From an uncultured bacterium (GTDB lineage: Bacteria; Armatimonadota; Hebobacteria; CAIYQO01): a stretch of 64,000 bases of DNA. The notes below the pieces were generated by a model. That model saw nothing but the letters and a program-made list of their open reading frames with translations. It was not told where the DNA came from and searched no databases. A program made the translations under genes and the position numbers. The stretch covers positions 547 to 64,546 of the forward strand of contig CAYYJR010000011.1 of the NCBI GenBank assembly GCA_964472305.1, written 5' to 3'. Of this stretch, positions 5,421 through 64,000 are shown in pieces; positions within the stretch are counted from its first letter, which is position 1; the number at the start of each line of letters is the position of its first letter.

Positions 5421-6098
5421 TTACCTCGCGGACAGCGGTGGAGTCTCCGATTTATGGCGGATGATTTCGCCATCGATCAGATACACCACATCCTCGGCAA
5501 TGTTGGTGGCATAATCGGCGATGCGCTCCAGATTGCGGCTCACCGACAGGTAGTTGATCAGTGTTTCCACCTGCTCCGGGTGCTGCCGTATCGCCTGCTG
5601 AATGCTGTGGAACATCTGCCGGTTGATCTCATCCACCTCATCATCGGCGGCGCCAACATCTCGCGCCAGTTCCACGTCCATGTTCATCAACGCATCCAGG
5701 CTGCGGCGCAGCATGTTTTGCGTCTTCATCGACATCTCGGTCAGATCGTATGGCGGCGGGATGGCGGTATGGGCAGCCAGCACCGCGGAGCGCTCGGCGA
5801 TATTCACCGCCAGGTCGCCGACGCGCTCCAGATCGTTGTTGATCTTCATGACGGCGATCACCAATCGTAAATCGATGGCGACCGGCTGATGAAGGGCAAG
5901 AATTTTTAGACATTCTTCCTCGATATCCACCTCCATCTGGTCGATATCGTTATCGGTTTCGATGACCTGGGCAGCCAGCGCGACGTTGCGTTCGCTGACT
6001 GATTTGGTCGCCAGCCGCACGCTGTCCTCGACCAGGGCGCTGAGCGTGAGAATCTGGCGTTTCAGGTTTTCGATTTCCCGTTGCAAATGGCGTGACAT
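5421..6098 (-). CDS. phoU: Phosphate signalling complex protein PhoU
   Basis: 225 aa with two PhoU repeats (ALAAQVIETDNDIDQMEVDIEEECLKILALHQP and LAAHTAIPPP...). Lies between pstB and pit. Confidence 0.9.
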   Translation of the reverse strand: MSRHLQREIENLKRQILTLSALVEDSVRLATKSVSERNVALAAQVIETDNDIDQMEVDIEEECLKILALHQPVAIDLRLVIAVMKINNDLERVGDLAVNIAERSAVLAAHTAIPPPYDLTEMSMKTQNMLRRSLDALMNMDVELARDVGAADDEVDEINRQMFHSIQQAIRQHPEQVETLINYLSVSRNLERIADYATNIAEDVVYLIDGEIIRHKSETPPLSAR

Positions 6099-20205: not shown

Positions 20206-20402
20206 ACGCCGCCGTCGGCTCACTTGCCGCCGCGAGGTATTGACAGTATTGCCGACTTTTTGCTACCGTTACGCATTGTGTAAGGAAGACTGCGCGGAGC
20301 GTGCGTGCGCATGAGCCGCCGGTAAGCCGGCAGACGATCTTTGTGGGGTCGGGCTGCCGGTTTTTGGTTACAGTGGACCGCCAACGTGCGGGAGACGTGG
20401 AA

Positions 20403-43676: not shown

Positions 43677-43856
43677 GCAGTTTGGGTGATATGCCGGGAG
43701 GAATATCGGCTGGCATGTGTCTGAATTGACACATGCGGGTATGCCGTCGCGGGCAGCAAGCAGGGACTGACATGTTTAGCCCTCACCAGCGTCGGGTAAT
43801 CCCCCTGAGGGATGGTTTCTGATTTCAACGCTCGCCCTGGTGGGCAACTGGCGGCT

Positions 43857-44897
43857 ATGGAAATATTCACCTGCAGACAATGCGGTGCGGTGTGTGACGA
43901 ACAGACGGAGTCTTGCGCAGCTTGCGGCGCGCTCTTGCCGCGGGAGGCGGAGGCGCTGGCACCACCCGATCCAAAGACGCTGCGTGTGCGCGAACTGCTG
44001 GATCAGTCGCGCCGCCAGCAACACGTGGGCGACCTGACCACTGCCATTCGTTGCGCGCGCGAGGCGCTGCTGCTCCGCCCGGATTGCTCCACCATACACG
44101 CCACCCTGGGTGCGCTGTATGAGCAGGTGGGCGACGAAGTCGCGGCGCGGTATCATTTTCAGACCGCGCTGTCGGTGACACCCGTGCACGACTGCCCGGT
44201 GCCGCCGGTCGTCCCGGAGTTCGCGGCGGTCCGCGCTTCTTCCGGCAGTTGGCGCACGCTGGTGCTCATCGGCTGCATCCTGTTCAGCGGGGTAGCCGTA
44301 TTGTTCACCCTGTGGCCCATCGAGCGCGACATCGAACGTGGCACCATTATCCATTCCCCTTCGCCGGCGGCAACGAACTGGATCGATCACGTACCGGAGC
44401 CGGCACCCGTGAAGCAAACGGAACCGGACGAAACCACCGCCAACGACACCGGCACGGGGAAAACACCTGTCCCGGCATCCGCCGATCCGAAACCCAATCC
44501 GGCATCGGCAACACCGGCAACGGTGACGCCCGCGAGCATGACCACCGTGGTGCTGGGGCCCAGCGCCAGTTCGAGCGTACCGGCCGTCGCGAACGCGCCG
44601 ACGCTGGAACAGGCCGAGCAAGCGGAGTTTACCGGTAATTACGAGCGCGCGGTGGCAACCTACGAAGCGCTATTACGCCAGCAGGACAAGCCCAATCCGA
44701 ATCTGCATCACAAGCTGGCGTTGAACTACCAGCGTCTGGGCAATACGCCGAAAGCCGCCGAACACCTTAACTCCGCCGTGCAGGATTTTCGGAAGCAAGT
44801 GGCGGACAATCCGCAGGATACCGTTGCCCAGCAGGAATTACGCAACTGCGAAGCCGCGCTGAAAATGCTGAACACCCACGACCAGACCGCGCCCTGA
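43857..44897 (+). CDS. Membrane-anchored TPR protein with N-terminal zinc ribbon
   Basis: MEIFTCRQCGAVCDEQTESCAACGALLP (C4 ribbon), TPR units, one TM helix (TLVLIGCILFSGVAVLFTLW), a Pro/Thr/Ala-rich linker, and C-terminal TPR units. Confidence 0.55.
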   Translation: MEIFTCRQCGAVCDEQTESCAACGALLPREAEALAPPDPKTLRVRELLDQSRRQQHVGDLTTAIRCAREALLLRPDCSTIHATLGALYEQVGDEVAARYHFQTALSVTPVHDCPVPPVVPEFAAVRASSGSWRTLVLIGCILFSGVAVLFTLWPIERDIERGTIIHSPSPAATNWIDHVPEPAPVKQTEPDETTANDTGTGKTPVPASADPKPNPASATPATVTPASMTTVVLGPSASSSVPAVANAPTLEQAEQAEFTGNYERAVATYEALLRQQDKPNPNLHHKLALNYQRLGNTPKAAEHLNSAVQDFRKQVADNPQDTVAQQELRNCEAALKMLNTHDQTAP

Positions 44898-44940
44898 GTT
44901 CTCCACCGGGCATCGTATCACACCACAAGGGAGCTGACAC

Positions 44941-46071
44941 GTGCGTCTCGCCATTACCTGTTTTGCCGGCATCGGCGGCAGCGGCATTGTCGCTACCGAA
45001 TTGGGCAAAGGCCTGGCCGCCCGTGGCCACGAGGTGCATTTTGTCTGCGCCGACATGCCGTTCCGCCTGGAGGATCTGTCCGCGCGCCTGTATTTTCATC
45101 CCGTGCGCCCATTCCCCTATCCGGTGCTGCAAAGCCCGCTTTACGATCTGGCGTTGGCATCGCGGTTAGCCGAGGTGATGGCTGAGCAGCAGCTTGAGTT
45201 GCTGCACGTGCACTATGCCATCCCGCATGCCATCTCCGCGTACCTGGCACGGCAAATCTGCACGCATTCCTTCCCGGTGATTACCACGCTGCACGGCACC
45301 GATACGCGGCTGGTAGGGCTCGATCCCTCATATCGACCGATCACCCGCTTCAGTCTGGAACAATCCGACGGCGTGACGGCGGTGTCGCGCCACTTGGCCG
45401 ATGCCACCCAGGAGGATTTCGCGCTCACTCATCCCATCACGGTGTTGCACAACTTCGTCGATACCGTGCGCTTCCGCCGGCGCGAACTGCCCCACTGCTA
45501 TCGCGCGCAGTTCGCCGAGGAGAACGAGCGCCTGCTGGTGCATATTTCCAATATGCGCCCGGTGAAGCGTCTTCTCGATATCGTGCGCGCTTTCGCCCTG
45601 GTGCAGCATGCGCTGCCTGCCCGGCTGGTGCTGGTGGGTGACGGGCCGGATCGGTTCGCGGCGGAACGGCTGGCCTGCGAATTGGAAGTGGCTGACCGCG
45701 TCACCTTCGCGGGCAATATCGCGCACGTGGAGAATGTGCTGGCGGTGGCCGATCTGTTCCTGCTCGCATCCGAAGTGGAATCGTTCGGATTAGCCGCGCT
45801 GGAGGCAATGGCTTGCGGCGTGCCGGTAGTCGGCACCGCCATCGGTGGCGTGCCGGAGGTTGTGACCGACGGCGTGGATGGCCTGCTGGTGGGGGTGGAT
45901 GACCCGGAAGCGCTGGCGGAGGCCGCATTGTCGCTGTTGCGGGTGCCCGAGCGACTGGCCGCCTTCGCCCGTGCCGCATACACACGGGTGGAAACCGACT
46001 TCAGTCTCGAGGCCGGCATCAGCGCCTATGAACGCTATTACGCGCAATTCCTCGCTCGCGCCGTCGTCTAA
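44941..46071 (+). CDS. bshA: GT4 glycosyltransferase, BshA-like (N-acetyl-alpha-D-glucosaminyl L-malate synthase-like)
   Basis: The N-terminus MRLAITCFAGIGGSGIVATELGKGLAARGHEVHFVCADMPFRLED is near-identical in pattern to BshA ([33 protein letters not shown]). The C-terminal GT4 E-x7-E region is present (FGLAALEAMACGVPVVGTAIGGVPEVV). GTG start behind AAGGGAG. Confidence 0.6.
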   Translation: MRLAITCFAGIGGSGIVATELGKGLAARGHEVHFVCADMPFRLEDLSARLYFHPVRPFPYPVLQSPLYDLALASRLAEVMAEQQLELLHVHYAIPHAISAYLARQICTHSFPVITTLHGTDTRLVGLDPSYRPITRFSLEQSDGVTAVSRHLADATQEDFALTHPITVLHNFVDTVRFRRRELPHCYRAQFAEENERLLVHISNMRPVKRLLDIVRAFALVQHALPARLVLVGDGPDRFAAERLACELEVADRVTFAGNIAHVENVLAVADLFLLASEVESFGLAALEAMACGVPVVGTAIGGVPEVVTDGVDGLLVGVDDPEALAEAALSLLRVPERLAAFARAAYTRVETDFSLEAGISAYERYYAQFLARAVV

Positions 46072-46394
46072 AGCGGTATTTCCATCGGTTTTCACCGAAG
46101 CGCAGCGCGTATTTTTCGATATCTTCGCCCTGCCGTGCTGGCGTTTCTTTACCGGGAGATCGCATGGTTGGTGCCCGGTTACACCCGTGTTCCCAGAGGG
46201 AATACAGCGCTGCTGCCCGGCATAAAATCATTCGCCCACTAGGAAATCGCTGTAAAATATGGTACAATCCTATCATCCTCGTCGGAGAGCGCCTGTGAAG
46301 CCGGCCAGGAAGCGAGATGCATGCCGGTCATCCCTGAGTAATTCGGGGGCCAGATGTTCTTTAGCTTACATGTCAATCCGCTGGAGGAGCTTGC

Positions 46395-47609
46395 ATGCCA
46401 TCATTTCGGTATAATGCCATTGACCAGACGGGGCGCCCGTATTCCGGTACGCTGGACGCTGAAAATCTGGAAGCGGTGCGCGCAAAATTAGCCGAGTTAC
46501 GCTACTACGTCGTTGGGATTGCAGAGATCGGCACCACCACCAGCCTCAACGATTACCTCAAAGCCTTCTCGCGGGTCAAGCAGAAAGAACTCGTCGTTTT
46601 CAGCCGGCAGTTTGCCACGATGATCGACGCCGGTTTGAGCGTATTGAAGTGCCTGGACATTCTCAATCGCCAGACGAAAGACCCGGTGTTGCGCGACACG
46701 CTGGCGACCGTACGCCATGATGTCAACGGCGGTGCCAGCCTTACCGAGGCCATGAGCAAGCACCCGCGCGTGTTCAGTAAGTTATACGTCAATATGGTGC
46801 GCTCCGCGGAGGCCGGCGGTATTCTCGACCAGGTACTCGATCGCCTGGCGACTTTCCTGGAAAAAGACCTTGACCTGCGGCATAAAGTCAGCTCGGCGAT
46901 GATGTATCCGACGGTGGTTTTCGTGTTCTCCGCCGTCGTGATGTGCGTCATGATGTGGTGGGTGCTGCCCCGTTTCGCCACGATTTTCGAAGAGATGGGA
47001 TTGAAAGAGCTGCCGTTTACCACCAAGGTCATGCTGGGATTTGCCACCAGTACGAAGAAATACTGGTACCTGGTCATCATGTCCATCGTCGCCGCCATCG
47101 TCGGCATCAAACTCTACGGACGCACACCGACCGGCGCATTGCACCTAGATAAACTCAAGCTGCGCATGCCGATTTTTGGCGATATCATGATGAAAGTTGC
47201 TATTTCGCGCTTCGCTCGCACCTTCGGCACGCTGATCTCCAGCGGTGTCCCGGTGTTGCGCGCCATGGAAATCACCTCCGATACCTCCGGCAACCTCGCC
47301 ATTGCCCAGGTTATTGAAAAAGCACGCACCAGTGTGAAAGAAGGCGAAAAAATCAGCGATCCCATGCAGAACAGCGAGTATTTCCCGGTCATGGTCACTC
47401 AGATGATTTCCGTGGGGGAAGAGACCGGGCGCCTCGATCAAATGCTCGTCAAAGTCTCTGATTTCTATGAAGCCGAAGTGGATGCCTTGCTCAAAGGCCT
47501 GGCCTCACTCATCGAACCATTTATGATTGTCGGTCTGGGGATCATGGTCGGTTTCATCGCCGTGAGCGTCATTTCCCCAATTTATACGCTGGTGGGCAGT
47601 GTGCATTAA
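46395..47609 (+). CDS. Type II secretion / type IV pilus platform protein (GspF/PilC family)
   Basis: 404 aa. Two GspF repeats are present (FSRQFATMIDAGLSVLKCL...; FARTFGTLISSGVPVLRAM...) with three TM helices. RBS GGAGGAG. Its stop TAA is immediately followed by the ATG of the next gene. Confidence 0.8.
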   Translation: MPSFRYNAIDQTGRPYSGTLDAENLEAVRAKLAELRYYVVGIAEIGTTTSLNDYLKAFSRVKQKELVVFSRQFATMIDAGLSVLKCLDILNRQTKDPVLRDTLATVRHDVNGGASLTEAMSKHPRVFSKLYVNMVRSAEAGGILDQVLDRLATFLEKDLDLRHKVSSAMMYPTVVFVFSAVVMCVMMWWVLPRFATIFEEMGLKELPFTTKVMLGFATSTKKYWYLVIMSIVAAIVGIKLYGRTPTGALHLDKLKLRMPIFGDIMMKVAISRFARTFGTLISSGVPVLRAMEITSDTSGNLAIAQVIEKARTSVKEGEKISDPMQNSEYFPVMVTQMISVGEETGRLDQMLVKVSDFYEAEVDALLKGLASLIEPFMIVGLGIMVGFIAVSVISPIYTLVGSVH

Positions 47610-48977
47610 ATGACTCCTCAGAATCCAGACACCGTTGACAACGCCTCCACCCGTGCCGCGGGAGAGCTGGACACGCTGGCGCAGTTTCGCGCCTTTCGTG
47701 CAACGCACGACATCGCCCTGCGGGATCAACTCGTCTGTCGCTATCTGCACCTGGTGCACAGCGTCGCCCGCCGCTTCAGCGGCATGGGCGAATCGGTGGA
47801 GGATCTGGTGCAGGAAGGCACTATCGGCTTGCTGAACGCCGTCGACCTGTACGATCCCGAACGGGGAGTTAAATTCAGCACGTATGCCTGCCACCTCATC
47901 ACCAGCCAGATGCAGCACTACCTGCGCGACCGCGGCCGGCTGATCCGTCAACCGGCGTGGGTGCAGGAACTGAACACCAAAATTACCCGCTCCACCGAAC
48001 AGCTCGCGCAGGAACTGGGACGCGATCCCTCGTCGGCAGAGGTGGCGGAACGGTTGAACATCTCTGAGGATTCGGTGCAGAACGTGCTGGCCGCCCGCGA
48101 GTTGAACCGTGTGATGTCGCTTAACGCCCCCGCCGACGGCAGCAGCGACTCCGAGTTGTCGCTGGTGGAAAAGGAGAAGGGATCCGTCTCCAAGCTGACT
48201 GCAATGCAGTTGCCGGTGGAAGATCGCATCGTGCTCGACGACGCAATTAACGGTCTGAAAGAGCTGGAACAAAAAGTGGTGCGCCTCTTCTTTTTCGGCG
48301 ATTTCAACCAGACGGAGATCGCGCGCAAACTCGGCATTTCGGTCAACTACTCGTCCTATTTGCTCCGCCGCTCAGTCACGAAGATCAAAGCGGTACTGGA
48401 TGAACAGCGCATCCAGGAAACGGCGGCATTACTGGAGAGTGAAACCGAGCGTATACAGTTATCGGCCGATCTACCAACCCACGATGCCGTCGCCGGCGTT
48501 TATTCCGGTGCCTATCTGCGCGCACGGGTTGCCGAAGAGATTGCCCGCGGTCGCCGTTATCCGACCAATTTCGCGCTGATGCTGGCTGGCGTGCAAGGCT
48601 TCGATCCCGCTGATGCCGAGCAGGCGCGGCTGGTGCTGCCGCCTATCGGACAGTTGCTGCGCAGTTGTACCCGCATTGTGGACCTGACCGCCCATATCGG
48701 CAACGGTCAGTTCGGATTGCTGCTCCCCCACACGGGCCGCGAGGCGAAGGTGCTTGGTGAGCGCCTGTGCGTTCAGGTGGCCACGCGCGAATTGCTACCT
48801 CCCGGCTGCATGCTGTCGCTGGTGTTGAATGTCGGATTCGCGGTCTTCCCGATGGAGGGCGCCAGTGTGGAGATGCTGTTTGATCGCGCGGAACACGCGC
48901 TGGCGCAGGCTGTCAAGGCCGGGCACAATACCGTCATGGGAGTGCCGGTTGCCCGTATCCCGCTGAAAGTGGTGTAA
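47610..48977 (+). CDS. Group-3 (SigB/SigF-like) sigma-70 factor fused to a degenerate GGDEF domain with an intact I-site
   Basis: Sigma region 2 (DLVQEGTIGLLNAVDLYDPERGVKFSTYACHLI) and region 4 HTH (QTEIARKLGISVNYSSYLLRRSV). Residues ~285-455 align to GGDEF, but the active site is GNGQF, the DxD metal site is lost (LAGVQG) and RIVD sits exactly 5 residues before it (RxxD I-site retained). The C-terminal DRAEHALAQAVKAGHNTV matches the GGDEF tail. Confidence 0.7.
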   Translation: MTPQNPDTVDNASTRAAGELDTLAQFRAFRATHDIALRDQLVCRYLHLVHSVARRFSGMGESVEDLVQEGTIGLLNAVDLYDPERGVKFSTYACHLITSQMQHYLRDRGRLIRQPAWVQELNTKITRSTEQLAQELGRDPSSAEVAERLNISEDSVQNVLAARELNRVMSLNAPADGSSDSELSLVEKEKGSVSKLTAMQLPVEDRIVLDDAINGLKELEQKVVRLFFFGDFNQTEIARKLGISVNYSSYLLRRSVTKIKAVLDEQRIQETAALLESETERIQLSADLPTHDAVAGVYSGAYLRARVAEEIARGRRYPTNFALMLAGVQGFDPADAEQARLVLPPIGQLLRSCTRIVDLTAHIGNGQFGLLLPHTGREAKVLGERLCVQVATRELLPPGCMLSLVLNVGFAVFPMEGASVEMLFDRAEHALAQAVKAGHNTVMGVPVARIPLKVV

Positions 48978-49206
48978 CCTGTCCGGCATGGCTTCAACGT
49001 CGTGTGGCATGATCGGTGACACATGGCGTGGGAATGGTGTGTTTCTGCTCTTGATGAAGAAGGAATCGTGCAAATACCGGCGAATAGCTAAAGATACGAT
49101 GAAAAACGATAACCCTCCCACAGCGCACCCCCGGTCGCGGGGCAGGCGTAATGGTCGGATAAGACGACGCACTTCGTGGATGACAGGCAATGGCAGGGGT
49201 GCGAGC

Positions 49207-52200
49207 ATGGGGAAGGAGGCTTCGGTGAAACGAATGGGATGGCTCAGTGTGCTGATGATCGTGCTGGCGGGCATGTGCTGGAGCGTCGCGACGGCGCAGT
49301 TCGCCTGGGATCCCCAGGAATTTATGGGGATCGATGAGATCAGACCAGGCATGACCGGATACGGCAAAACGGTTTTCGAAGGCACCAAGGTCGACAAATT
49401 CGACATCGAAGTGATCGGTGTACTGAAGAAGATCGATTTCGGCTTCGACATGATCCTGATTAAAGTGACCAGCGGGCCCGTTATCGATCGGAAGCTGCAA
49501 ACCGTCTCCGGGATGAGCGGCAGTCCCATCTATATCGAAGATCGGCTGATCGGCGCGTATGCGTATGGTTGGGAGTTCCAGCAGGAAGCGATCGCCGGTG
49601 TCACCCCCATCGCGGCGATGATGGAATGTAGCCAGCCCGGTTCGACAGCGCCGCAGCTCATCGGCAGCCTGGTACCGCGCAACCGCGTGCTGCATATCGG
49701 CAAGCACATGATTACCCGCGTCGAGGTGGTGTCCAACCCCTCGGAAGCGCGGCAGTTGCAGGCGAAAGCTGATCCGACTACCATGGTGCTGGCGCCGGTC
49801 GCCACCCCGGTGTTTGTGAGCGGCATGTCCGAAAAGGCGCTGCCGTCGCTGCAGAAAATCTTCGATCGATATAATCTGCGCGCGTTGCCGGGCGCGGGTC
49901 CGATGGACGGTCCCGCTCCGCCACTGGAAGCGGGTTCCGCTGCCGCCGTGTCGCTGATGGAAGGCGACGCTAACATGAGCGCGGTCGGCACTGTCACCTA
50001 CGTGAAGGGTGACACCGTGCTCGTATTCGGGCATCCGTTCCTCGGGGTTGGGAAGATCGACCTGCCGCTTTCCGCGGCGTACGTGCATGGGATTATCAGC
50101 AGCAGTGCCTCATCATTTAAACTCGCCTCGCCACTTGGCGAGGTGGGCGCCGTCACCTCGGACCGCGCCTTTGCCGTCGCCGGCATTCTCGGGCGCAAGG
50201 CGGAGGTGCTGCCGGCTACGCTGTATCTGAACGATCCCACGCGCAAGTTCACCCGGCGCTATCAGGCCAATCTGATGAGTGACCCCAACTTCACCCCCGC
50301 GCTGCTCTATATGTGGATCATCTATAACGGCGCGCAGCAGATGGGCGATCTCATGGGTGACGAGGGAACCTTTGTCGGGCGCATGCTGCTCAATACGGAT
50401 ACACTGGGCAGCATCGATCAAACCATCGCCGTCTGCCCGCAAATGAGCAGCACCTTCTTTCCGTTCAGTGAGTATTATGAGCTAGCCGACCTGTTAATGA
50501 AGAATCCGTATGAACCGGTGAAACTGAAGGAGATCTTCATCGACCTGAAATATACTCCCGAGCGCAATGTCGCGGTCATCGAAAAGGTTACACCGGACCG
50601 TCCGATCGCCCGTCCGGGCGATATTGTCAACCTGTCGGTGAACATTCGACCGTATGGCAAACCACTGGAAACGCGCACCGTGTCGGTGAAGGTGCCCGAG
50701 CGGGCGACTGAACCGGTGATGCTGGTGGTGGTAGCCGGCGGCACGATGGCCCCGTTTGTCAAACCATTGCTCAGTCCGGAGCCAACGTCGGAAGAAGGAT
50801 TGAAAGGAGTGGTGCGCTGGCTCACTAATAATCCGTCCAACCAGAGCCTGCTGACCGTGAAAATATTACCGTCACCCAGTTATGGGTATCGCGCGCACCT
50901 CTTGCGTGATGTGCCGTTGCCCGTGCTGGATCTGCTGCGGTTTGCCGAGACGGGCATCACGCCCCAAACCCGCAGCACAGGCGATTCCGGCGAGAATGCG
51001 CGAGAGGGGCAGAGCGGCGGCTTTGGCGGTAATGTTCAGCCCACCGCGTATATGACAATTGAAGATGTGCCATATTCGCTGGGCGGCGGTCAGATTATCT
51101 CCATCGCCATCGATACCGAGGAACGGGCGCTGCAGTCGCGACGCGGCCCCTTCGACTTCGGCATGCAGTTGCCGGTCCTGAGCTCGTCGCTCAACCCGGG
51201 GCGTGAAGCTCCTGAAGAAGGCAACGGTCCACCGTCGGGCAAAGATGAGATCGCCATGTATTCATCGTTGTTAACCCCACAGCAGAGGGCACGATTCGCG
51301 ATGATGCAGGAAATGTTCAAAGTGCCGACGGCACCGGTGACGCGAATGACGTTGCCCACCCTGACGGGACGCACGCTGGGTCGCGCCGAGTTGCTCTCAC
51401 GCGCCCTGTTGGCCAATCCACGTGCCGGCGAGGATGCAGAAATTGACGCCCAACCACCGGGCGATGGCGAAAAAAGTGAAGCCGGTCTGAAAGACGCGGA
51501 AACCGATGAGAATGGGCAGGCGCAGGAAGAGGATAATCCCGACGCTGACAATGCCAAGGAGCCTGGTTATGGCGAGTTGAAGTCGCTGCTCACCCGCAAG
51601 CAGATGAGTTGGGGCTTGACAGGACGGCGCGATTTCTTGCGCGGCAAGCATCTCGGCACCGGCGTTACCTCGCGCGGCAACCTGGTGCTGGTGCCCGCCG
51701 TGCGCTCGATCTACCAGACAAACAAGCTCATTCCCTGGAAGATCATCACCACAGCCAACGGCACCTACCTGTCCGGTTGGGGCAGCAGCAACATCGTGAA
51801 ATTCACCGCCGAGGGGAAGAGCGAAACCTTCTTCCCGAAGGTCGCATTGACCACGCCCGTGGAAGCGGTGACCGCCCTGGCCAGCGATGCCGACGGCAAC
51901 CTGCTCATCGGCACCTGGCCTGATCAGCGCGTCCGCCTGGTGGATACGACGGGTACGGTGAAACGTGAATGGGTACTGCCCGGCGGATCCATCTGGGATC
52001 TGGCTGTCACAAAGAACGGCAATCGGTATGCCGCTTGCGATGAAGGAATGGTCTATCTCCTGCGCGACCAGGCAGATGTGCCGCTGCAGGTGGCCTGCAC
52101 GGTGCCCGATAAACAGGTCTTTGTGTTGTCCGCCGCCGCTAACGGCGACCTGCTGATGGCTACCTCGCCGCGTGGCAAGGTGTATCGCCTGAAGGCTGTA

Positions 52201-53943
52201 GACGGGCAACTGAATTCGGTGTATGAGGCGCAAGGTGCGGTGACCAGCCTGACCACTGATGCGCAGGGGAACGTTTACGTGGGCACCTCGCCGCTGTGCC
52301 AGGTGTTCCGCATCAGCCCGGACGGCACCCAGCAGGAGATTATGCGCGGCATGGGCCGCGGCAATCGCCATGTGCTGTCGTTGCAAATGGTCGGCGATGA
52401 CCTGTACGCCGCCACCGGACCGGCCGGCGGCATCTACCGCATCAGCCAACCGACCAGCATGGAAGCAGAAGTCACCGCCGTCTTCGCTCGTGAAGACGCG
52501 CGGACCGGCGGTGAAGTTGATTCGGCCGGCTCTCCCGATGGCGTCGGCCCCGAATCGGTCATGGTGAATGCGCTGACGGTGAATGCCCGTGGCGAACTGC
52601 TGGCAGCGGCTTCCACGCCCGGTCAGGTGCTGAAGCTGGAAAACCGTACACAGGGCGCCTTCCTTTCCACCGTACTGCAGACCCCGGTGGTCGCACGTTG
52701 GGGACATTTCGACCTTCATGGCAATTTCGGTGAGGGCCAGACACTGGTGGTCGACAGCCGCAGTGGCAGCACCGCGGTGCCAGATAATACCTGGAGCCAG
52801 TGGACGGAAATCAGCAGTGACTGGTCGGAACTCACCAGTCCGCCGGCGCCGTTTGTGCAGTTCCGCGTGCGCATGTCCGGCGCGACGTCCCCATCGCTCG
52901 CCTATGCCCGCTTGTTCTACCAACCATCCAACCAGGCGCCGAAAATTCGCCTGCTGCAACCGCGCCCCGGCCAGTATTGGAGTGGAATGAAATCAATCCG
53001 CTGGGAAGCAATGGACCCAGATGGCGACACCCTGGTCTTCAACGTCTCAACCTCGCGCAATAACGGGAAGACGTGGTCGCTGATGGTGCGGACGCCCGAC
53101 GCGCCCCAACCGGAAGCCGCGCCGAAAGAGAACACAGCTGAACCGGCGGATAAAAAAGCCGATGAATCACAGACGCCGAAAGCCGATGCCGTTGCAAAAC
53201 CGGCGAAGTCCGGCAAGGAGAAGGTAAAAGGCGAGAAACCCGGGAAACCTGCGAAGGATCAGGTAGAAGTGTCGAAAGTGGTGGATCCGGTCAAAGGCAC
53301 ATCGACCGATACCAAACCCACGGCGGAAACGCCCAAACCGGAGGAGAAACCTGCGGTGAAATCGAGAAGATCCGATTCTGAACTGGCTGAATCCACTATG
53401 CCGTGGGATACCAAATCCACGCCGGATGGTCTTTACCTGCTGAAGATCGAAGCGTCGGATAAATACGCGAAACCCACCGATCCGAAGAGTGCGGTAGTCA
53501 TCTCCGGCGCCGTGATGATCGACAACACGCCGCCGTCCATCGCGCTGGACGATAAAGTCTATGGATGGGACGGTCTGAAGCGCATTGTCCTCACGGATAA
53601 CCTGACGGCACTGATGGGTGGCAAATACCGCATCGAGGATGGTCCGTGGACCGCGCTGGTCGCGGAAGACGGCATGTTCAATGCTCGTCAGGAAGCTGCG
53701 TTGCTGGTAACCCCCACCGGTGATGTCGCACTCACCAAGGGTGAATATAAAGTCGAACTCCAGGCGTTCGATTCCGCCGGCAATATGCTTGATCGCACGA
53801 TCACCGTACTGGTCGGCATTCAACCCCCACGTCCCCCGGCTAGTTTGGACGTACCGCCGGTGGGGGAGGCCAAAATCGGCGATATCAACCTCACCGAGCA
53901 TGAACGCCGGCTGGCTGAGATCCTGTTGCGCGGCCTGGAATAA
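49207..53943 (+). CDS. Giant secreted multidomain protein: SpoIVB-like (S55) serine-peptidase motifs, low-complexity linkers, Reg_prop-type beta-propeller, Ig/FN3-like domains
   Basis: Signal peptide KRMGWLSVLMIVLAGMCWSVATAQFA. Residues ~50-170 match the Ser half of SpoIVB (DKFDIEVIGV...MILIKVTSGPVIDRKLQTVSGMSGSPIYIEDRLIGAYAYGW). The His-half-like segment (AVGTVTYVKGDTVLVFGHPF...VHGIISSSASSFKLASP) comes later. Acidic/Pro-rich and Lys/Pro-rich linkers separate repeats DADGNLLIGT, AANGDLLMAT, DAQGNVYVGT. Start ATG 49207 or GTG 49225. Terminator follows at 53969. Confidence 0.6.
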   Translation: MGKEASVKRMGWLSVLMIVLAGMCWSVATAQFAWDPQEFMGIDEIRPGMTGYGKTVFEGTKVDKFDIEVIGVLKKIDFGFDMILIKVTSGPVIDRKLQTVSGMSGSPIYIEDRLIGAYAYGWEFQQEAIAGVTPIAAMMECSQPGSTAPQLIGSLVPRNRVLHIGKHMITRVEVVSNPSEARQLQAKADPTTMVLAPVATPVFVSGMSEKALPSLQKIFDRYNLRALPGAGPMDGPAPPLEAGSAAAVSLMEGDANMSAVGTVTYVKGDTVLVFGHPFLGVGKIDLPLSAAYVHGIISSSASSFKLASPLGEVGAVTSDRAFAVAGILGRKAEVLPATLYLNDPTRKFTRRYQANLMSDPNFTPALLYMWIIYNGAQQMGDLMGDEGTFVGRMLLNTDTLGSIDQTIAVCPQMSSTFFPFSEYYELADLLMKNPYEPVKLKEIFIDLKYTPERNVAVIEKVTPDRPIARPGDIVNLSVNIRPYGKPLETRTVSVKVPERATEPVMLVVVAGGTMAPFVKPLLSPEPTSEEGLKGVVRWLTNNPSNQSLLTVKILPSPSYGYRAHLLRDVPLPVLDLLRFAETGITPQTRSTGDSGENAREGQSGGFGGNVQPTAYMTIEDVPYSLGGGQIISIAIDTEERALQSRRGPFDFGMQLPVLSSSLNPGREAPEEGNGPPSGKDEIAMYSSLLTPQQRARFAMMQEMFKVPTAPVTRMTLPTLTGRTLGRAELLSRALLANPRAGEDAEIDAQPPGDGEKSEAGLKDAETDENGQAQEEDNPDADNAKEPGYGELKSLLTRKQMSWGLTGRRDFLRGKHLGTGVTSRGNLVLVPAVRSIYQTNKLIPWKIITTANGTYLSGWGSSNIVKFTAEGKSETFFPKVALTTPVEAVTALASDADGNLLIGTWPDQRVRLVDTTGTVKREWVLPGGSIWDLAVTKNGNRYAACDEGMVYLLRDQADVPLQVACTVPDKQVFVLSAAANGDLLMATSPRGKVYRLKAVDGQLNSVYEAQGAVTSLTTDAQGNVYVGTSPLCQVFRISPDGTQQEIMRGMGRGNRHVLSLQMVGDDLYAATGPAGGIYRISQPTSMEAEVTAVFAREDARTGGEVDSAGSPDGVGPESVMVNALTVNARGELLAAASTPGQVLKLENRTQGAFLSTVLQTPVVARWGHFDLHGNFGEGQTLVVDSRSGSTAVPDNTWSQWTEISSDWSELTSPPAPFVQFRVRMSGATSPSLAYARLFYQPSNQAPKIRLLQPRPGQYWSGMKSIRWEAMDPDGDTLVFNVSTSRNNGKTWSLMVRTPDAPQPEAAPKENTAEPADKKADESQTPKADAVAKPAKSGKEKVKGEKPGKPAKDQVEVSKVVDPVKGTSTDTKPTAETPKPEEKPAVKSRRSDSELAESTMPWDTKSTPDGLYLLKIEASDKYAKPTDPKSAVVISGAVMIDNTPPSIALDDKVYGWDGLKRIVLTDNLTALMGGKYRIEDGPWTALVAEDGMFNARQEAALLVTPTGDVALTKGEYKVELQAFDSAGNMLDRTITVLVGIQPPRPPASLDVPPVGEAKIGDINLTEHERRLAEILLRGLE

Positions 53944-53968
53944 TCATACTCGCTTCCCGAAACAGTCA

Positions 53969-54006
53969 CGCCGCCCTCGCCTATTGGCGAGGGCGGCGTT
54001 GTATTG
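53969..54006. terminator. Bidirectional intrinsic terminator between the giant-protein gene (+) and the GAF-GGDEF gene (-)
   Basis: CGCCGCCCTCGCC-TATT-GGCGAGGGCGGCG is a perfect 13-bp stem followed by TTGTATTG. Confidence 0.65.
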
Positions 54007-54057
54007 CGGAAGATTGACGCATGGTGAGTGAAACTGGCAATGTATGATGCCCGAGGA

Positions 54058-55353
54058 TTATTCTTCTTCCTCCATCGTCTCCAGTGCTTCATCCCAGTCG
54101 AAAATGATCTGGTTGCCGCCGATGTGCTGTGCTTGCGACACACACTGGCTGGCCTTGAGCGTCAACTGCTCGACGGTGGTCACGCGTACGGACAGGCAGG
54201 CAACGCCAATGCTGACGGAGAAATGTCCCAGGCCTTGTGCATTCTGGATGGTCAATGCCGAGATGCGCTCGCGCAGGCGCTCCGCTACCACCACCGCGCC
54301 GATGCCCGGCGTCGACGGCAGCAGCACCCAGAACTCCTCATCGGTATATCGCGCAGCCATATCGCGCGCGCGCACGCAGCCTTGAATCTCCTGGGCGATG
54401 CGCGCCAATACCTCGTCGCCAAAGTTGACGCCGAAGTTCTGGTTCATGGATTGCAGATGGTCAGCGGTGACAATCAGCAGCGACAGGTGACCACCGGTCT
54501 GAATGGCTTCAGTCACGTACCGCTGGATTTCGTCGAGAAAGTGCTGCTTGTTCGATAGTCCGAGTTCGGGATCAGTCGTGCTATTGGGATCAAATCGCCC
54601 CTTCAATGACGCGAGCTGGCGCGCGGTAGTGTCCAGTGTGGTCTGCAGCCGCATCTCGCGCAGACGCGCGGCTAGCAGTTGCCCGACCAGGCGCAAAGTT
54701 TCCAACTCCACCGATTGGAGTGATCGACCTTCGATGTCAGCGAGTACGATGGCGCCCATTGGCGTGGCGTGGGCCGCCAGCGGCGCCAGGATCAACGTGC
54801 GCGCCGTGTGACTCTGTTCGGCGCTGCCGTCTTCCGCGGGCGGCAACTGCCGATCGAAATCGGTAATCACCCGCACGTCGCTGGCGCCTTTGCGCATTAA
54901 GTGGGTTACCAGCGCAATCACCCGTTGCAGCGGAAAAACCTCTTCCTCATCCGACATGATGAGCGCCATGGAGGAGAGCACTTTGCCGTCGTGCAGCAGA
55001 ATAGTGCCGTATTCCATACCGTAGGTTTCGGCCAGACGTCCGATGGCATATTCCAGCAATTCGCTCTCCTGGCGCAGGCGCAGCATGGTGGAACCGACTT
55101 CACGGGTGAAATGCAGCAGTTTACTCGCCAGGATCTGCGTATCGTCATGTTGTTGCTCGGTAGTTGAATTAGCCATAAAAGAATACCATTCACGGAATAA
55201 TTGTCGCGCCATCGAGGCATGCGCGGTTGCATCGACATCCGAGCGGCGAGCGCATTTGACACCCGCCGAAGAGACCGGCAAAATATAGTCTTCAAGGAGA
55301 TCATCGGATTGCCGGCGAAAAGACTTAACCAACTTATTCCAGCGCGCGAGCAA
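54058..55353 (-). CDS. GAF-domain protein with degenerate GGDEF domain (RYTDEEF), likely non-catalytic
   Basis: N-terminal GAF-like regions. The C-terminal GGDEF fold (LIVTADHLQSMNQNFG, GDEVLARIAQ) has TDEEF in place of GG(D/E)EF and an RARD I-site 5 residues upstream. Confidence 0.6.
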   Translation of the reverse strand: MLARWNKLVKSFRRQSDDLLEDYILPVSSAGVKCARRSDVDATAHASMARQLFREWYSFMANSTTEQQHDDTQILASKLLHFTREVGSTMLRLRQESELLEYAIGRLAETYGMEYGTILLHDGKVLSSMALIMSDEEEVFPLQRVIALVTHLMRKGASDVRVITDFDRQLPPAEDGSAEQSHTARTLILAPLAAHATPMGAIVLADIEGRSLQSVELETLRLVGQLLAARLREMRLQTTLDTTARQLASLKGRFDPNSTTDPELGLSNKQHFLDEIQRYVTEAIQTGGHLSLLIVTADHLQSMNQNFGVNFGDEVLARIAQEIQGCVRARDMAARYTDEEFWVLLPSTPGIGAVVVAERLRERISALTIQNAQGLGHFSVSIGVACLSVRVTTVEQLTLKASQCVSQAQHIGGNQIIFDWDEALETMEEEE

Positions 55354-55387
55354 TTTTCCTCCTGAAAGAGAGAAGTGGGGAACGAAG

Positions 55388-56806
55388 ATGAAGCAATGCC
55401 CTGAATGCGGTGCCGACTACGACGTCACCGATGTGATTTGCGTCGCCTGCGGCGCCGATCTTCCCGCGCCATACGAGAAGTACGGCGATGACGACGCCGA
55501 GGTTACCCAGGCTGAGTCCGGTGTGATCAGTGTCCTGGGTGATGCTGATCCGGCGGTGTTGGCCGTACTCGGCGCGCCCGCGGTAGACCTGGCTGCGCTG
55601 ACGGCTAACCTGCGCTCAGATCAGCTCACCATCCTCTCCGGCGCCACCATCTTTGTGGGTGAGCACGTGGTGGAAGCCGGTACGGTCGGCATTGCCGGCG
55701 ATCGCATCATTGCCGTACTCGACACCGCCATTCCCAATCCGGGCGACGGCTCGCAATTCATCGATCTGCGCGGTCTGGTGCTCGCGCCGGGCTTCATCGA
55801 GTTGCACTCGCACGGGATGATGGGCATCGATACGAACTCGGCCGGTATGGATGATTTCCTGCGCATCTCCACCGAGGCCGCCAGGCATGGGCTGACCGGC
55901 ATCACTCCCACCACGGTGGCCTGTTCAGCAGAACAACTGCGTTCAGTGCTGCAGAATTTGCGCGACGCCCGCGCGGCGGGTATGCATGGCACGCGCCTGC
56001 TGGGCGTGCACATGGAGAGCAACTTCATCAGCATGGCCAAGAAAGGCGCGCAACCGCCCGACCAGATTTTCTCGCCTGACGATCCACGCGCGCAGGAAAT
56101 CCTTGACCTGATTGACGCCTATCAGGACGAGGTGCGTATCGTCACATTGGCACCCGAGCTGTCCGGCGCACTCGAACTGATCGGCTGGTTGCGCGAGCGC
56201 AACATCTTCGTCTCGCTGGGCCACTCCACGGCGAACTACGACCAGGCCATTGCCGGCTTCGACGCCGGCGCCACCATGGCGACGCACCTCTTCAACGCCA
56301 TGTCGCCACTCGCGCATCGCGAGCCCGGGCTGGTGGGCGCGGCGCTGGAGCGTGACGATGTCTACACCGAAATGGTCTGCGACGGCGTGCATATCCACCC
56401 CTCGGTCATCTCCACCGTCATCTCCGCCAAAGGCAGCGAGCGCTTTATTCCGGTATCCGACAGTCTGCAGGGCGCGGGACTGGGCGAAGGTGACGAGTTC
56501 TTCCTCGGCGGTCAGCACGTCACCGTGCGCGACGGCGTCGCCCGCCTGGACAGCGGCACCATCGCCGGCAGCGTGGTCACCATGGATAAGATCGTGCAGA
56601 TGTTCATCGAGACGCTGAGTTGGGACCTGGGCGAGGCGCTGACGATGGCCTCCACCACGCCCGCCGACGCGCTGGAACTCACCCACGTCGGCCGCATCCT
56701 CCCTGGCGCCATTGCCGACCTGGTGGTGCTCGACGCCGATCTCAGCGTTGTGATGACCTTCGTTGGCGGCCGGGTGGTGTATCAGCGAGACGCGCAGACG
56801 GTGTGA
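55388..56806 (+). CDS. nagA: N-acetylglucosamine-6-phosphate deacetylase with N-terminal zinc-ribbon extension
   Basis: N-terminus MKQCPECGADYDVTDVICVACGADLP, then amidohydrolase motifs GFIELHSHG, HLFNAMSPLAHREPGLVGAAL, ICDGVHIHP (NagA metal and substrate ligands). Confidence 0.75.
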   Translation: MKQCPECGADYDVTDVICVACGADLPAPYEKYGDDDAEVTQAESGVISVLGDADPAVLAVLGAPAVDLAALTANLRSDQLTILSGATIFVGEHVVEAGTVGIAGDRIIAVLDTAIPNPGDGSQFIDLRGLVLAPGFIELHSHGMMGIDTNSAGMDDFLRISTEAARHGLTGITPTTVACSAEQLRSVLQNLRDARAAGMHGTRLLGVHMESNFISMAKKGAQPPDQIFSPDDPRAQEILDLIDAYQDEVRIVTLAPELSGALELIGWLRERNIFVSLGHSTANYDQAIAGFDAGATMATHLFNAMSPLAHREPGLVGAALERDDVYTEMVCDGVHIHPSVISTVISAKGSERFIPVSDSLQGAGLGEGDEFFLGGQHVTVRDGVARLDSGTIAGSVVTMDKIVQMFIETLSWDLGEALTMASTTPADALELTHVGRILPGAIADLVVLDADLSVVMTFVGGRVVYQRDAQTV

Positions 56807-63230: not shown

Positions 63231-63514
63231 GGCTGAAGGCAGCATGACCGGCATAAGACTGCCCGGTGGTCTGCTGCGTATCGACCAGTAGGAGTCGTAT
63301 AACTATGTTGGCGGGCGTAACCGATCAAAATTCGTGTATGGCGAAGGCAATTATTGCTAACGGCAACGGCCATCGTTTCTACGCGCCACGGCACGATGCC
63401 GGTTCACATCCCGCCATGTCCGCTGTTCCGGGCACGCTATGCCGGCGGACGACGACAGCTTCATGCTCAAATGGGACAATCAGGTGATCAATTACGTAAA
63501 AGGAGGTTCCCGAA

Positions 63515-64000
63515 TGGTTAGGCAAAAGGTATCACTCCGAGGCTTTACCCTCATCGAACTGCTTGTAGTGATAGCCATCATCGCTATCCTGGCAGCAATT
63601 CTCTTTCCGGTATTTTCCAAGGCTCGCGCCAAGGCTTACCAGAATGTGTGTCTGAACAATCAGCGCCAGTTGGCGCTGGGTATCCTGACTTACAGCCAGG
63701 ATAACGAAGAGACGCTTCCGTATCCCCCGAAATGGGTGGCGGCCACCGGACTCAGCAGTGATTCGAAGGTGTTCAACTGTCCGGTCAGTTCCGAAGACGG
63801 CATGCCGTCCGCGCCGGATTACGGGTACAACTCATGGCTGTTTGATGAAGTCGACGGCGTAAAAGTCGGCGCGGCGTACGGCAACATTCAGCGTCCGGAA
63901 GCCACGGTAATACTCGTGGATGCGTATGGGACGACCGCTCCGACCGCGGACAGCGCCAACCCGTTTGGGTCGAGTCCCACCGTCAATTCATTGACCGGCA
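63515..64000 (+). CDS. Prepilin-type N-terminal cleavage/methylation-domain protein, DUF1559 (H-X9-DG)-like, 3'-partial
   Basis: [41 protein letters not shown] is the class-III signal/pseudopilin N-terminus typical of the abundant DUF1559 proteins of Planctomycetota/Armatimonadota. The ORF runs off the window end. Confidence 0.75.

Follow-up and report, generated by a model that had tools for sequence, protein, structure and literature searches.

The region at positions 46395 to 55353 of the 64-kb window (the whole stretch of DNA analysed) is probably part of a type IV pilus (T4aP) gene set that lies dispersed in the genome of this Armatimonadota bacterium, and its sigma factor, which carries a degenerate GGDEF domain (sigma-GGDEF), is probably dedicated to the pilus and gated by c-di-GMP. 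The pair formed by pilC and the sigma-GGDEF gene is more likely to serve the control of pilus genes than the export of the giant protein encoded downstream, and the "lone" pilC is best read as a scattered piece of a type IV pilus gene set. The sequence-only reading of this DNA had proposed a self-contained, c-di-GMP-responsive module exporting or displaying the giant protein. All four genes that it described are real, and its degenerate GGDEF domains, pilC-sigma pairing and link to the giant protein were borne out, but two gene starts, the absence of a prepilin gene and the operon status had to be corrected, and the export module is countered by the comparative data. The features of the region are as follows.

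46240..46268, plus strand: promoter-like element 5' of pilC, TAGGAA, 17-nt spacer and TACAAT with an extended -10 (TGGTACAAT)
46395..47609, plus strand: pilC, type IV pilus inner-membrane platform protein of the GspF/PilC family, 404 aa
47610..48977, plus strand: sigma-GGDEF, 455 aa, with sigma regions 2, 3 and 4 and a C-terminal GGDEF domain (Pfam)
48672..48713, plus strand: RIVD of the I-site, aa 355-358, and the active-site motif degenerated to GNGQF, aa 364-368
48978..49206, plus strand: intergenic gap between the sigma and giant genes, 229 bp
49207..53943, plus strand: giant exported protein, 1578 aa, start from gene callers and homologues
53968..53999, no strand assigned: GC-rich hairpin, perfect 14-bp stem and 4-nt loop, between convergent stop codons
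54058..55176, minus strand: GAF-degenerate-GGDEF protein, about 372 aa, in an ORF that reaches TTG at 55353

PilC contained two T2SSF domains (Pfam, 219.6 bits) and was matched over its full length by the NCBIfam PilC and GspF models, with scores under the equivalog cut-offs. It shared 59% identity with PilC of the complete pilus cluster in locus L007 and 35% with a T2SS-like GspF. Judged by these identities, the window PilC is an ortholog of the pilus-cluster PilC and would be an ordinary pilus platform protein. In T2SS and T4P, a PilC platform is not known to act without an ATPase and pilins. PilB, PilT, PilM, PilN, PilO and PilQ were indeed missing from the 64 kb searched (tblastn; Pfam survey of ~40 ORFs), as had been claimed for pilus and secretion partners in general, but one prepilin-type (N_methyl) gene runs from 63493 to the window end. 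The ATPase, secretin, alignment-complex and pilin partners would be located elsewhere in the genome. Functionally related genes are dispersed in Armatimonadetes (PMC4959169), and one 626-kb contig carried two sigma-GGDEF paralogs at separate sites, with pilins elsewhere.

We compared 52 related Armatimonadota loci, 47 of which had enough flank to assess the pilC-sigma order. In 37 of the 47, pilC lay directly upstream of sigma-GGDEF on the same strand, and in two more it was nearby. This coupling was the tightest linkage seen at these loci (0-6 nt in the window clade), and it persisted across clades with 34-48% protein identity despite repeated cluster break-up. The pairing is thus real and strongly conserved. 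The sigma ATG abuts the pilC stop (TAA-ATG), from which the two genes are probably coupled translationally; pilC would be fused transcriptionally to a phylum-wide pilus-associated group-3 sigma gene. In deeper lineages the pair was embedded in a complete type IV pilus cluster with the order PatA_N-pilMNOPQ-pilB-pilT-pilC-sigma-GGDEF-pilA-minor pilins-PilX-like-GAF/HD-GYP-MshEN ATPase (a second ATPase), followed by the giant protein (L007, L018, L022, L026, L028 and L049); L021, L024 and L048 showed the identical pilus cluster order, with no giant protein detected. A pil cluster into which this pilC fits, taken by the sequence-only reading as evidence against itself, was thus essentially found in relatives, where orthologous pilC and sigma-GGDEF genes lie between pilT and pilA.

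The sigma-GGDEF protein is a group-3 sigma-70 factor, with sigma regions at aa 42-260, a long linker helix at aa 245-279 and a degenerate GGDEF domain at aa 290-440. More than 120 clusters shared this architecture. Its best NCBIfam matches were SigB/F/G and cyanobacterial SigF, both under cut-off. The AF2 model (pLDDT 80.5) placed the long helix before the GGDEF domain and did not resolve the arrangement of the GGDEF and sigma domains (pTM 0.43). RIVD lies five residues N-terminal to GNGQF. Among 150 distinct family members, the arginine of RxxD was kept in 137 (91%) and the aspartate in 147 (98%), and the catalytic acidic positions had decayed in almost all, with D/E left in 9 members and E in 10; D358 and R385 were invariant in a 25-sequence alignment. 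The catalytic motif is, as far as these residues tell, dead family-wide. The claim of two degenerate, RxxD-keeping GGDEF domains, the second being that of the convergent GAF protein, therefore holds for the families and not only for this genome, and since both domains are degenerate with RxxD kept family-wide, it is reasonable to regard both proteins as candidate c-di-GMP receptors.

A pilus-associated sigma-GGDEF could also use its GGDEF domain for dimerization or docking, or as an intramolecular anti-sigma domain, rather than as a c-di-GMP sensor; the sigma factor might be tethered to PilC, PilB or another GGDEF/HD-GYP protein, or be released from inhibition by another signal. Degenerate GGDEF domains are often protein-interaction modules, as an E. 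coli interactome study reportedly found, and both the tight pilC-sigma coupling and the long helix would suit such a role. However, I-site c-di-GMP receptors typically show this combination of a retained RxxD and a decaying active site, and c-di-GMP wiring is also indicated by the GAF/HD-GYP protein and the MshEN-domain ATPases encoded in the full clusters. We consider this alternative unlikely, although it is the strongest competitor of the gated sigma factor.

In the full-cluster clade, pilA was preceded by a conserved promoter, ATCTCAAA-N13-TGTGGAATAA, that occurred nowhere else in those loci and is, by comparison with the sigma-70 consensus, apparently of a non-sigma70 type. Each of 11 loci had a single copy of TCTCA-N12-16-TRTGGAA, in every case located between the sigma gene and pilA, and the corresponding PWM scored 34-38 at pilA sites and <=20.8 at every non-pilA site. 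Related elements (TATGGAATAA) precede the pilins adjoining paralogs in L003 and L052. The pilA-type promoter was not found in the window, where the best PWM score of 12.2 equaled background. The element upstream of pilC has the form CTAGGAAATCG...TATGGTAC(A/T)AT, kept in the closest relatives (the window, L005, L054, L055 and L009). Its sequence (TAGGAA...GGTACAAT) resembles the SigF-type pilA1 promoter of Synechocystis, with TAGGC at -32 and GGTAA at -12 (PMC2532724), but an ordinary extended -10 promoter of the housekeeping sigma-A fits equally well. An autoregulatory loop of the sigma factor at this locus is possible.

The window sigma factor belonged to the pilC-linked paralog clade, and the sister clade includes pilin-adjacent paralogs (L003 and L030), so the two clades may have diverged in function. 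A general stress-type, SigB-like sigma factor that stands beside pilC through inherited gene order and has no part in pilus regulation would agree with the SigB/F/G matches, with the paralogs lacking an immediately adjacent pilus gene (L019, L020, L034, L044 and L052) and with the absence of a pilA-type promoter from the window. It is improbable, given a linkage that outlasts extensive protein divergence and cluster break-up, the unique conserved promoter directly between the sigma gene and pilA, and the control of pilins by group-3 sigma factors in cyanobacteria and Actinomycetota.

The giant protein begins with a signal peptide of the ordinary Sec type, followed by an S55-like serine-protease region, an unassigned region rich in beta structure, a disordered acidic linker, a beta-propeller of seven blades that matches Vgb-lyase and WD40 folds, Ig-like domains and a Lys/Pro-rich linker (AF2, residues 1-1200: pLDDT 80, pTM 0.69). 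Its start, previously placed at 48988, is at 49207 by gene callers and homologs or at a GTG at 49225 with a better ribosome-binding site. Pfam Peptidase_S55 matched at 27-32 bits, above the gathering score, over 66 of 210 profile positions. The serine motif GMSGSP aligned to the corresponding serine-motif region in the structure of SpoIVB (peptidase S55, Bacillus subtilis; 9lnf), and S104, S106 and H276 were invariant in 34 homologs. Beyond the partial S55 match, the protein differs from SpoIVB in several ways. A PDZ domain was not detected, and its candidate His motif (GTVTY...FGHPF, H276) follows the Ser motif instead of preceding it. It exceeds the solved chain of SpoIVB by ~1,250 aa, adds propeller and Ig-like domains, and has a pilus cluster as its context.

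Its association with the pilC-sigma gene set is recurrent, seen at 11 of 52 loci and in two distinct arrangements. Of 9 informative loci with complete pilus clusters, 7 had a homolog at the far end; in the full clusters the giant gene lies at a distance of ~6 kb and in the opposite orientation. The gene followed sigma directly in only 3 of ~20 window-clade loci. The 229-bp gap contained no terminator-like hairpin or inverted repeat, folded no better than shuffles and was poorly conserved relative to L005 and L055. A pilC-sigma-giant operon is therefore compatible with the gap, but the giant gene is unlinked to sigma in most close relatives. The protein would be a recurrent pilus-cluster accessory, perhaps an envelope or surface protease or an adhesin working with the pilus.

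The hairpin beyond it looks like a bidirectional terminator. A 123-nt region folded at -56 kcal/mol (z = -6.5), and the U-tracts are weak in both directions (TGTATTG on the plus strand, TGTTTCGGG on the minus strand). The convergent protein matched Pfam GGDEF at 103.9 bits and GAF weakly, and reads RARD...TDEEF as described. Since its orthologs are 365-372 aa long, its start is probably Met60, at about 55176 rather than 55353. In its family the first G of the motif was lost in most members, and R328 and D331 were invariant. Its conserved neighbor was a divergent Zn-ribbon amidohydrolase, and in relatives it never stood next to the pilC-sigma-giant locus; it is best read as an incidental, unrelated neighbor outside the pilC-sigma unit.

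The self-contained export module has in its favor four adjacent genes ending at the shared hairpin, the terminator-free gap and a recurrent giant protein with a signal peptide, but it is very improbable and already largely refuted by the pilus-type PilC and its general need for partners, the placement of orthologous pairs within full pilus clusters, the Sec-type signal peptide, the distant and inverted giant gene in those clusters and its rarity directly after sigma, and the unconserved GAF-GGDEF adjacency.

For the pilus-dedicated sigma factor, we propose that pilin promoters are the sites to which the sigma domain brings RNA polymerase; pilA transcripts would then start just 3' of TGGAATAA. 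The I-site of the GGDEF domain would be where c-di-GMP binds, with dimerization probably mediated by the long linker helix, and c-di-GMP would switch the protein between RNAP-competent and sequestered states. We infer this binding, the direction of regulation and the pairing of sigma factor with promoter. PelD, PopA and SgmT are c-di-GMP receptors in which a degenerate GGDEF domain binds the ligand at its I-site and is appended, as the sensor, to an output domain. They likewise have lost GG[DE]EF and kept RxxD, whereas sigma-GGDEF has an entire sigma factor as its output and its binding is predicted.

SigF of Synechocystis sp. PCC 6803, also group-3, controls its own expression and transcribes pilA1, the gene of the major pilin, from a promoter that is not of the sigma70 type (PMC2532724). 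Its model, PRK07408, was among the best matches of sigma-GGDEF (170 bits, below the cut-off of 261). Unlike sigma-GGDEF, SigF lacks a GGDEF domain and its gene lies outside pilus clusters, and the -35 element of the full-cluster pilA promoter (TCTCAAA) differs from that of the SigF-type promoter. The RsiG-c-di-GMP-WhiG switch of Streptomyces and Rubrobacter radiotolerans similarly ties a group-3 sigma factor to c-di-GMP, a tie that is presumptive here. It controls type IV pili in Rubrobacter and is described as the one sigma/anti-sigma pair known to be a target of c-di-GMP (PMC8325347); the predicted targets of WhiG there are type IV pilus operons and DGC/PDE genes, with promoters inside the pilus cluster (PMC8325347; PMC12871210). 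The WhiG consensus, TAAA-N15-GCCGATAA, has the overall shape of the pilA promoter described above. The window sigma domain, however, scored higher for SigB/F/G than for FliA/WhiG (177 versus 116 bits), and we saw no gene here that resembles rsiG. Sensing is instead presumed to reside in the degenerate GGDEF domain joined to the C-terminus of the sigma factor, where c-di-GMP would bind the RxxD I-site rather than a coiled-coil motif as in RsiG.

We found no description of a sigma-GGDEF fusion in the literature searched, and to that extent its sigma factor architecture is undescribed. It would be a one-polypeptide analog of the actinobacterial RsiG-(c-di-GMP)-WhiG switch, through which the supply of pilins may track the second messenger.

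By its named homologues, the window belongs to an Armatimonadota bacterium. Four genes occupy 46.3 to 55.4 kb of the window, whose G+C content is about 60%: pilC, the gene for a sigma-70 factor fused to a GGDEF domain (sigma-GGDEF), the gene for a giant exported protein, and the convergent GAF-GGDEF gene.

Features of the pilC locus in the window
46395-47609, + strand: pilC, GspF/PilC platform protein with two T2SSF domains
47610-48977, + strand: sigma-GGDEF, sigma-70 regions 2, 3 and 4 followed by a C-terminal GGDEF domain
from 49207 (or GTG at 49225), + strand: giant protein, start from gene callers and homologues; the ORF is open from 48988
53968-53999: perfect 14-bp GC hairpin between the convergent giant and GAF-GGDEF genes

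The flanking genes were unrelated, with DegT, AddB, TPR and GT4 genes upstream and amidohydrolase, GH3, oxidoreductase and sugar-isomerase genes downstream. Farther upstream lay a pst/phoU operon, a two-component system, topoisomerase I and PEPCK. PilB, PilT, PilM, PilN, PilO and PilQ were not detectable within the 64-kb window. The sole other pilus-type feature was a pilin-like, prepilin-type gene (63493-64000, + strand; Pfam N_methyl, with the N-terminal methylation motif), which is 8 kb from the locus and runs past the window end; Armatimonadetes genomes are said to contain dozens of such N_methyl genes (PMC4072686). The sequence-only reading, which had described a pilC gene lacking partner genes at the head of this locus, was thus essentially right in its description, but it misplaced two gene boundaries and overlooked the pilin-like gene. 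Elsewhere in the window, a 1083-aa ORF (20301-23552, + strand) contained a whole GTP-dependent PEP carboxykinase (PEPCK_N and PEPCK_GTP) and a class I/II aminotransferase domain, either as a true fusion or as two genes without an in-frame stop between them. An Rfam search for riboswitches and other RNA elements gave no match.

The TAA stop codon of pilC directly abuts the ATG of sigma-GGDEF at 47610. The sigma regions scored above the Pfam cut-offs throughout (Sigma70_r2, 72.9 bits; r3, 54.8 bits; r4, 35 to 43 bits). The protein fell below the cut-offs of the SigB/SigF/SigG model TIGR02980 (177.1 against 234.35 bits), the FliA/WhiG model TIGR02479 (116.5 against 189.6 bits) and the cyanobacterial SigF model (170 bits), with SigB/F/G and SigF outranking FliA/WhiG. 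Judged by these scores, sigma-GGDEF is a distinct group-3 sigma lineage. As the sequence-only reading had stated, both GGDEF domains of the locus are degenerate: sigma-GGDEF has GNGQF, with RIVD exactly five residues upstream, and the GAF protein has TDEEF with RARD. Sigma-GGDEF lacks the combination of active diguanylate cyclases, namely GG[DE]EF and the Asn of DxLTGLxNR, and both proteins carry the RxxD of degenerate-GGDEF I-site receptors. The same pattern extended across the family. Among 150 distinct aligned members, the I-site was kept (R in 137, D in 147) and the acidic residues of GG[DE]EF were mostly lost (D/E at position 3 in 9, E at position 4 in 10), and the substrate-binding Asn of DxLTGLxNR was replaced by Thr or Ser. 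D358 and R385 were invariant in a 25-sequence alignment, and R385 is presumably spaced roughly as is the secondary I-site arginine of PleD. Degenerate-GGDEF c-di-GMP receptors are recognised by a decayed active site combined with a retained RxxD, and sigma-GGDEF is a candidate receptor of this kind. In the AF2 model (overall pLDDT of 80.5), the sigma domains were helical and normal (~90), and a 35-residue helix (245-279) linked region 4 to a canonical GGDEF fold; with a pTM of 0.43, the model does not fix the relative placement of the domains. No solved structure covered both the sigma and GGDEF halves, the nearest being sigma-F, WhiG and SigA over residues 20-270.

The best 120 protein clusters were nearly all of the r2-r3-r4-GGDEF architecture, with 44 to 75% identity and a few short fragments among them, and their named members were Armatimonadota. 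A genome scan gave 44 loci. The sigma-GGDEF family is therefore large, with more than 120 sequence clusters and 44 species-level genomes, and confined to one phylum. Database labels for its members were "sigma-70 family RNA polymerase sigma factor" or "sigma-B factor". Searching 1.84 billion representatives with the GGDEF domain only gave 30,533 matches, 5 of them below 1e-30, which merged into the general GGDEF superfamily and revealed no new architecture.

We placed pilus proteins by tblastn on 52 non-redundant loci from related Armatimonadota (designated L with a number) and counted pilC adjacency in the 47 loci whose upstream sequence reached at least 1.5 kb. In 37 of these, pilC was the gene immediately upstream of sigma-GGDEF, in the same orientation, and in 2 more it was close by in another arrangement. 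In a clade with 43 to 48% identity to the window sigma-GGDEF, the pair sits within a complete type IV pilus cluster (hereafter, full cluster). The order is PatA_N, pilM, pilN, pilO, a pilP-like gene, the secretin gene pilQ, pilB (MshEN and T2SSE), pilT, pilC, sigma-GGDEF, pilA, minor pilins, a PilX-like gene, a GAF/HD-GYP protein, a second MshEN ATPase and a convergent homologue of the giant S55/propeller protein. Full clusters with the giant gene were found in L007, L018, L022, L026, L028 and L049; L021, L024 and L048 showed the same order with no giant detected. A giant homologue was present in 7 of the 9 full-cluster loci with adequate informative flank. The PatA_N-domain gene opens the cluster in L007 (1-833), with equivalents in L018, L024, L028 and L048, and is preceded in L007 by a small Ras/Arf-like GTPase; the two recall polarity regulators of the MglA and PatA types, which act in pilus motility in other phyla.

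In the clade of the window (53 to 75% identity), the pilus cluster is broken up and the conserved block is TPR-GT4-pilC-sigma, with 0 to 6 nt between the pilC stop and the sigma start in the closest relatives. Of this clade, just the window, L005 and L055 have the giant gene after the sigma gene; L054, L056, L001 and others do not. Of the gene order described in the sequence-only reading, the pilC-sigma pair was conserved in relatives, but the position of the giant gene mostly was not. A neighbour-joining tree placed the window clade as sister to a paralogue clade containing pilin-adjacent members (L003, L030). Both paralogue types occurred within single MAGs or contigs, as with family proteins P0020 and P0063, which are encoded 290 kb apart on one 626-kb contig. 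Published work calls Armatimonadetes genomes unusually "disorganised": genes of related function lie scattered, and sigma factors are numerous (PMC4959169).

The window PilC scored 219.6 bits over two T2SSF stretches (Pfam cut-off of 25.2), and it aligned over its full length to the NCBIfam PilC and GspF models below their equivalog cut-offs (PilC of Thermus, 400 against 700 bits; GspF, 380 against 424 bits). By these scores, its membership in GspF/PilC is at the family level only. Its identity was 59% to the PilC of the full cluster in L007, as opposed to 35% to the GspF of a T2SS-like cluster in L055, so that orthology assigns it, at the sequence level, to type IV pilus pilC rather than T2SS gspF. 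The simplest reading is that it is an ordinary pilus platform gene whose partners are encoded elsewhere in the genome. The lone PilC module for exporting or displaying the giant protein, as first proposed, is largely contradicted by the full pilus clusters in which orthologous pilC-sigma pairs lie and by the Sec signal peptide of the giant protein. The T2SS-like set of L055 (1-4322, - strand), a locus with 68% sigma identity, comprises an MshEN/T2SSE ATPase, a 410-aa GspF, GspG, GspH and an N_methyl protein, and is separate from and 5 kb upstream of the TPR-GT4-pilC-sigma-giant block. Since this set accompanies the locus's own pilC, these genomes have at least two GspF/PilC paralogues. The TPR and GT4 glycosyltransferase genes upstream of pilC (43812-46071, + strand) recurred in about ten window-clade loci (L001, L005, L006, L008-L010, L012, L014, L054 and L055). 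In the window they are separated from pilC by a gap of ~320 bp with a weak terminator-like site (46131-46143) and pilC's own promoter. A tie of these genes to pilin glycosylation or EPS is possible. One relative, L016, had a GAAGAGT tandem repeat array upstream of pilC (~8440-8530).

The gene callers and all homologues place the giant start at 49207 (1578 aa), and the alternative GTG at 49225 stands behind a GGAAGGAGG ribosome-binding site. No terminator-like structure was found in the 229-bp gap between the sigma and giant genes. A conserved promoter in this gap was considered and rejected, as an alignment of the window, L005 and L055 conserved only the ribosome-binding site and start region. 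The protein has a signal peptide, an S55 (SpoIVB-like) GMSGSP motif, a disordered acidic linker, a 7-bladed beta-propeller resembling Vgb-lyase, WD40 and SGL folds, and Ig-like domains. It belongs to an Armatimonadota-wide family of 1,400 to 1,600 aa (194 matches) labelled "SpoIVB peptidase S55 domain-containing". S104 and S106 of GMSGSP and H276 of GTVTY...FGHPF were invariant across 34 homologues, and the Ser segment aligned with the SpoIVB structure 9lnf. The Ser motif precedes the His-type motif (residues 102-276, window 49510-50034), the reverse of the order in SpoIVB, and the protease core may thus be circularly permuted or duplicated. Pfam and NCBIfam searches gave no match to a PilY1 C-terminal or vWA domain, either of which would mark a PilY1-type pilus-associated propeller adhesin. 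That the giant gene recurs next to pilus clusters, and does so in two distinct arrangements, points to a functional tie to the pilus, and its Sec signal peptide and variable gene position disfavour PilC-dependent export. With low confidence, we regard it as an envelope or surface protease or adhesin accessory to the pilus. Downstream of the giant orthologue in L005 (18194-21362) are UQ_con (E2-like), trypsin-like protease, YukD (ubiquitin-like) and ThiF (E1-like) genes, a run that resembles a bacterial ubiquitin-like conjugation operon.

In the full-cluster clade, a terminator hairpin closes the sigma gene and pilA starts 240 to 350 bp further on. All these sigma-pilA intergenic regions shared ATCTCAAA-N13-TGTGGAATAA(C), in short a TATGGAATAA-type element, ~105 to 150 nt before pilA. 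TCTCA-N12-16-TRTGGAA occurred exactly once per locus in 11 loci, always upstream of pilA. With a two-block weight matrix, those sites scored 34 to 38 bits and the pilA of L023 scored 24.7, and the rest of the ~0.9 Mb of loci and the window remained at or near background (maximum of 20.8). Pilins adjacent to the paralogues bear related -10 elements, such as TATGGAATAAT in L003 and L052. By its sequence, the pilA element is different from TTGACA/TATAAT and has the shape of a group-3 promoter. For reference, the WhiG/sigma-28 promoter is TAAA-N15-GCCGATAA (PMC8325347), and the Synechocystis SigF promoter at pilA1 is TAGGC/GGTAA (PMC2532724). Sigma regions 2.4 and 4.2 were nearly identical across clades in the alignment, and the promoter specificity is therefore probably shared.

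The window contained no pilA-type promoter, the best matrix score being at background. Two exact TGGAATAA matches, considered as such a promoter for the giant gene or pilC, were rejected as coding or chance occurrences. The promoter search upstream of 46395 proposed in the sequence-only reading did yield an element, CTAGGAAATCG-N8-9-TATGGTAC(A/T)AT, common to the window and its closest relatives, but its assignment is ambiguous: it could be read with equal ease as an extended -10 promoter of the housekeeping type or as a SigF-like promoter (TAGG...GGTA). Because the SigF-like fit is as good as the housekeeping one, autoregulation by the sigma factor is possible.

The GAF-GGDEF start is probably Met60, because the orthologues are 365 to 372 aa long. 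These have xGEEF or xDDEF variants, and R328 and D331 were invariant in 14 sequences. The family also has a near-invariant C-terminal tail, GGNQ(I/V)xFDWDEALE, past the GGDEF domain (window 54058-54100, - strand). In L057, which holds a 60% identical orthologue, the conserved neighbour is a divergent Zn-ribbon amidohydrolase gene, found in the window at 55388-56806, and no pilC-locus genes were nearby. The GAF-GGDEF protein, earlier counted as a member of the same module, is on these comparisons an independent candidate c-di-GMP receptor whose adjacency to the pilC locus is incidental. Upstream of its probable start at 55176, TGGAATAA occurs at 55341-55334 (- strand) within AGGAGGAAAA-N13-TGGAATAAG (55334-55372), and the offset of AGGAAA from TGG(T/A)A is identical in this site and the pilC promoter (CTAGGAAAT-N13-TGGTACAAT). 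The site was not conserved in L057 and stands as an unexplained hint; it may simply be the SD of a TTG start at 55353. The DNA at 55200-55330 (- strand) was conserved with L057 (~5770-5840) as GGTTAAG...ATCCGA...TCCTTGA.G..TAT.TTTGCCG, which would be an N-terminal extension or else a conserved leader or promoter.

Starting from the observed domain architecture, family-wide motif pattern, pilC-sigma(-pilA) synteny and pilA-specific promoter, we infer that sigma-GGDEF would transcribe pilin genes and that c-di-GMP binding at the I-site would switch it between RNAP-competent and inactive states, with c-di-GMP probably cross-linking or re-orienting a helix-mediated dimer. The pilC-adjacent paralogue of the window may also autoregulate through its TAGGAA-N17-TACAAT promoter. 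FlgM and sigma-28 make flagellin expression wait for hook completion; a checkpoint similar in logic could exist here, in which sigma-GGDEF would be retained or freed by the PilC platform protein, or by the assembly state of PilC, and the near-universal pilC coupling, tight or translational in the window clade, might reflect it. It is a tentative and rather doubtful proposal that sigma-GGDEF is the first sigma factor with a built-in second-messenger receptor, a one-component, c-di-GMP-gated and pilus-dedicated regulator throughout Armatimonadota whose coupling to pilC serves as a machine-state checkpoint. Full clusters also encode the GAF/HD-GYP protein and MshEN-domain ATPases, domain types linked to c-di-GMP elsewhere, for example in Thermus PilF (PMC11731258). 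By analogy, such gene content fits a pilus cluster in which c-di-GMP inputs enter at several levels.

In its logic, the nearest known counterpart is RsiG-(c-di-GMP)-WhiG, described in PMC8325347 as the sole sigma/anti-sigma pair that c-di-GMP targets and predicted to control type IV pilus operons in Rubrobacter (PMC8325347; extended in PMC12871210). The gene tables of the loci list no separate RsiG-like gene between pilC and pilA. In sequence and target, the nearest is cyanobacterial SigF, the sigma factor that drives pilA1 in Synechocystis (PMC2532724). Sigma-GGDEF differs from both in that its presumed sensor is the fused degenerate GGDEF domain. A full-text literature search found no account of a sigma-GGDEF fusion or of pilus regulation in Armatimonadota.

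The noteworthy part of the locus is the sigma-GGDEF family and its linkage to the pilus, not a lone PilC export module. For annotation, "orphan" secretion or pilus genes of Armatimonadota are often pieces of dispersed systems rather than stand-alone machines. Transcriptional control by c-di-GMP is known to act through DNA-binding effectors and, in the single case of RsiG-WhiG, through a sigma/anti-sigma pair. A sigma factor with its own c-di-GMP-sensing GGDEF domain, if true, would be a more direct path from second messenger to promoter choice. The family comes from a poorly studied phylum and brings its own predicted promoter, and it would represent a second, independently built way of tying pilus gene expression to c-di-GMP.
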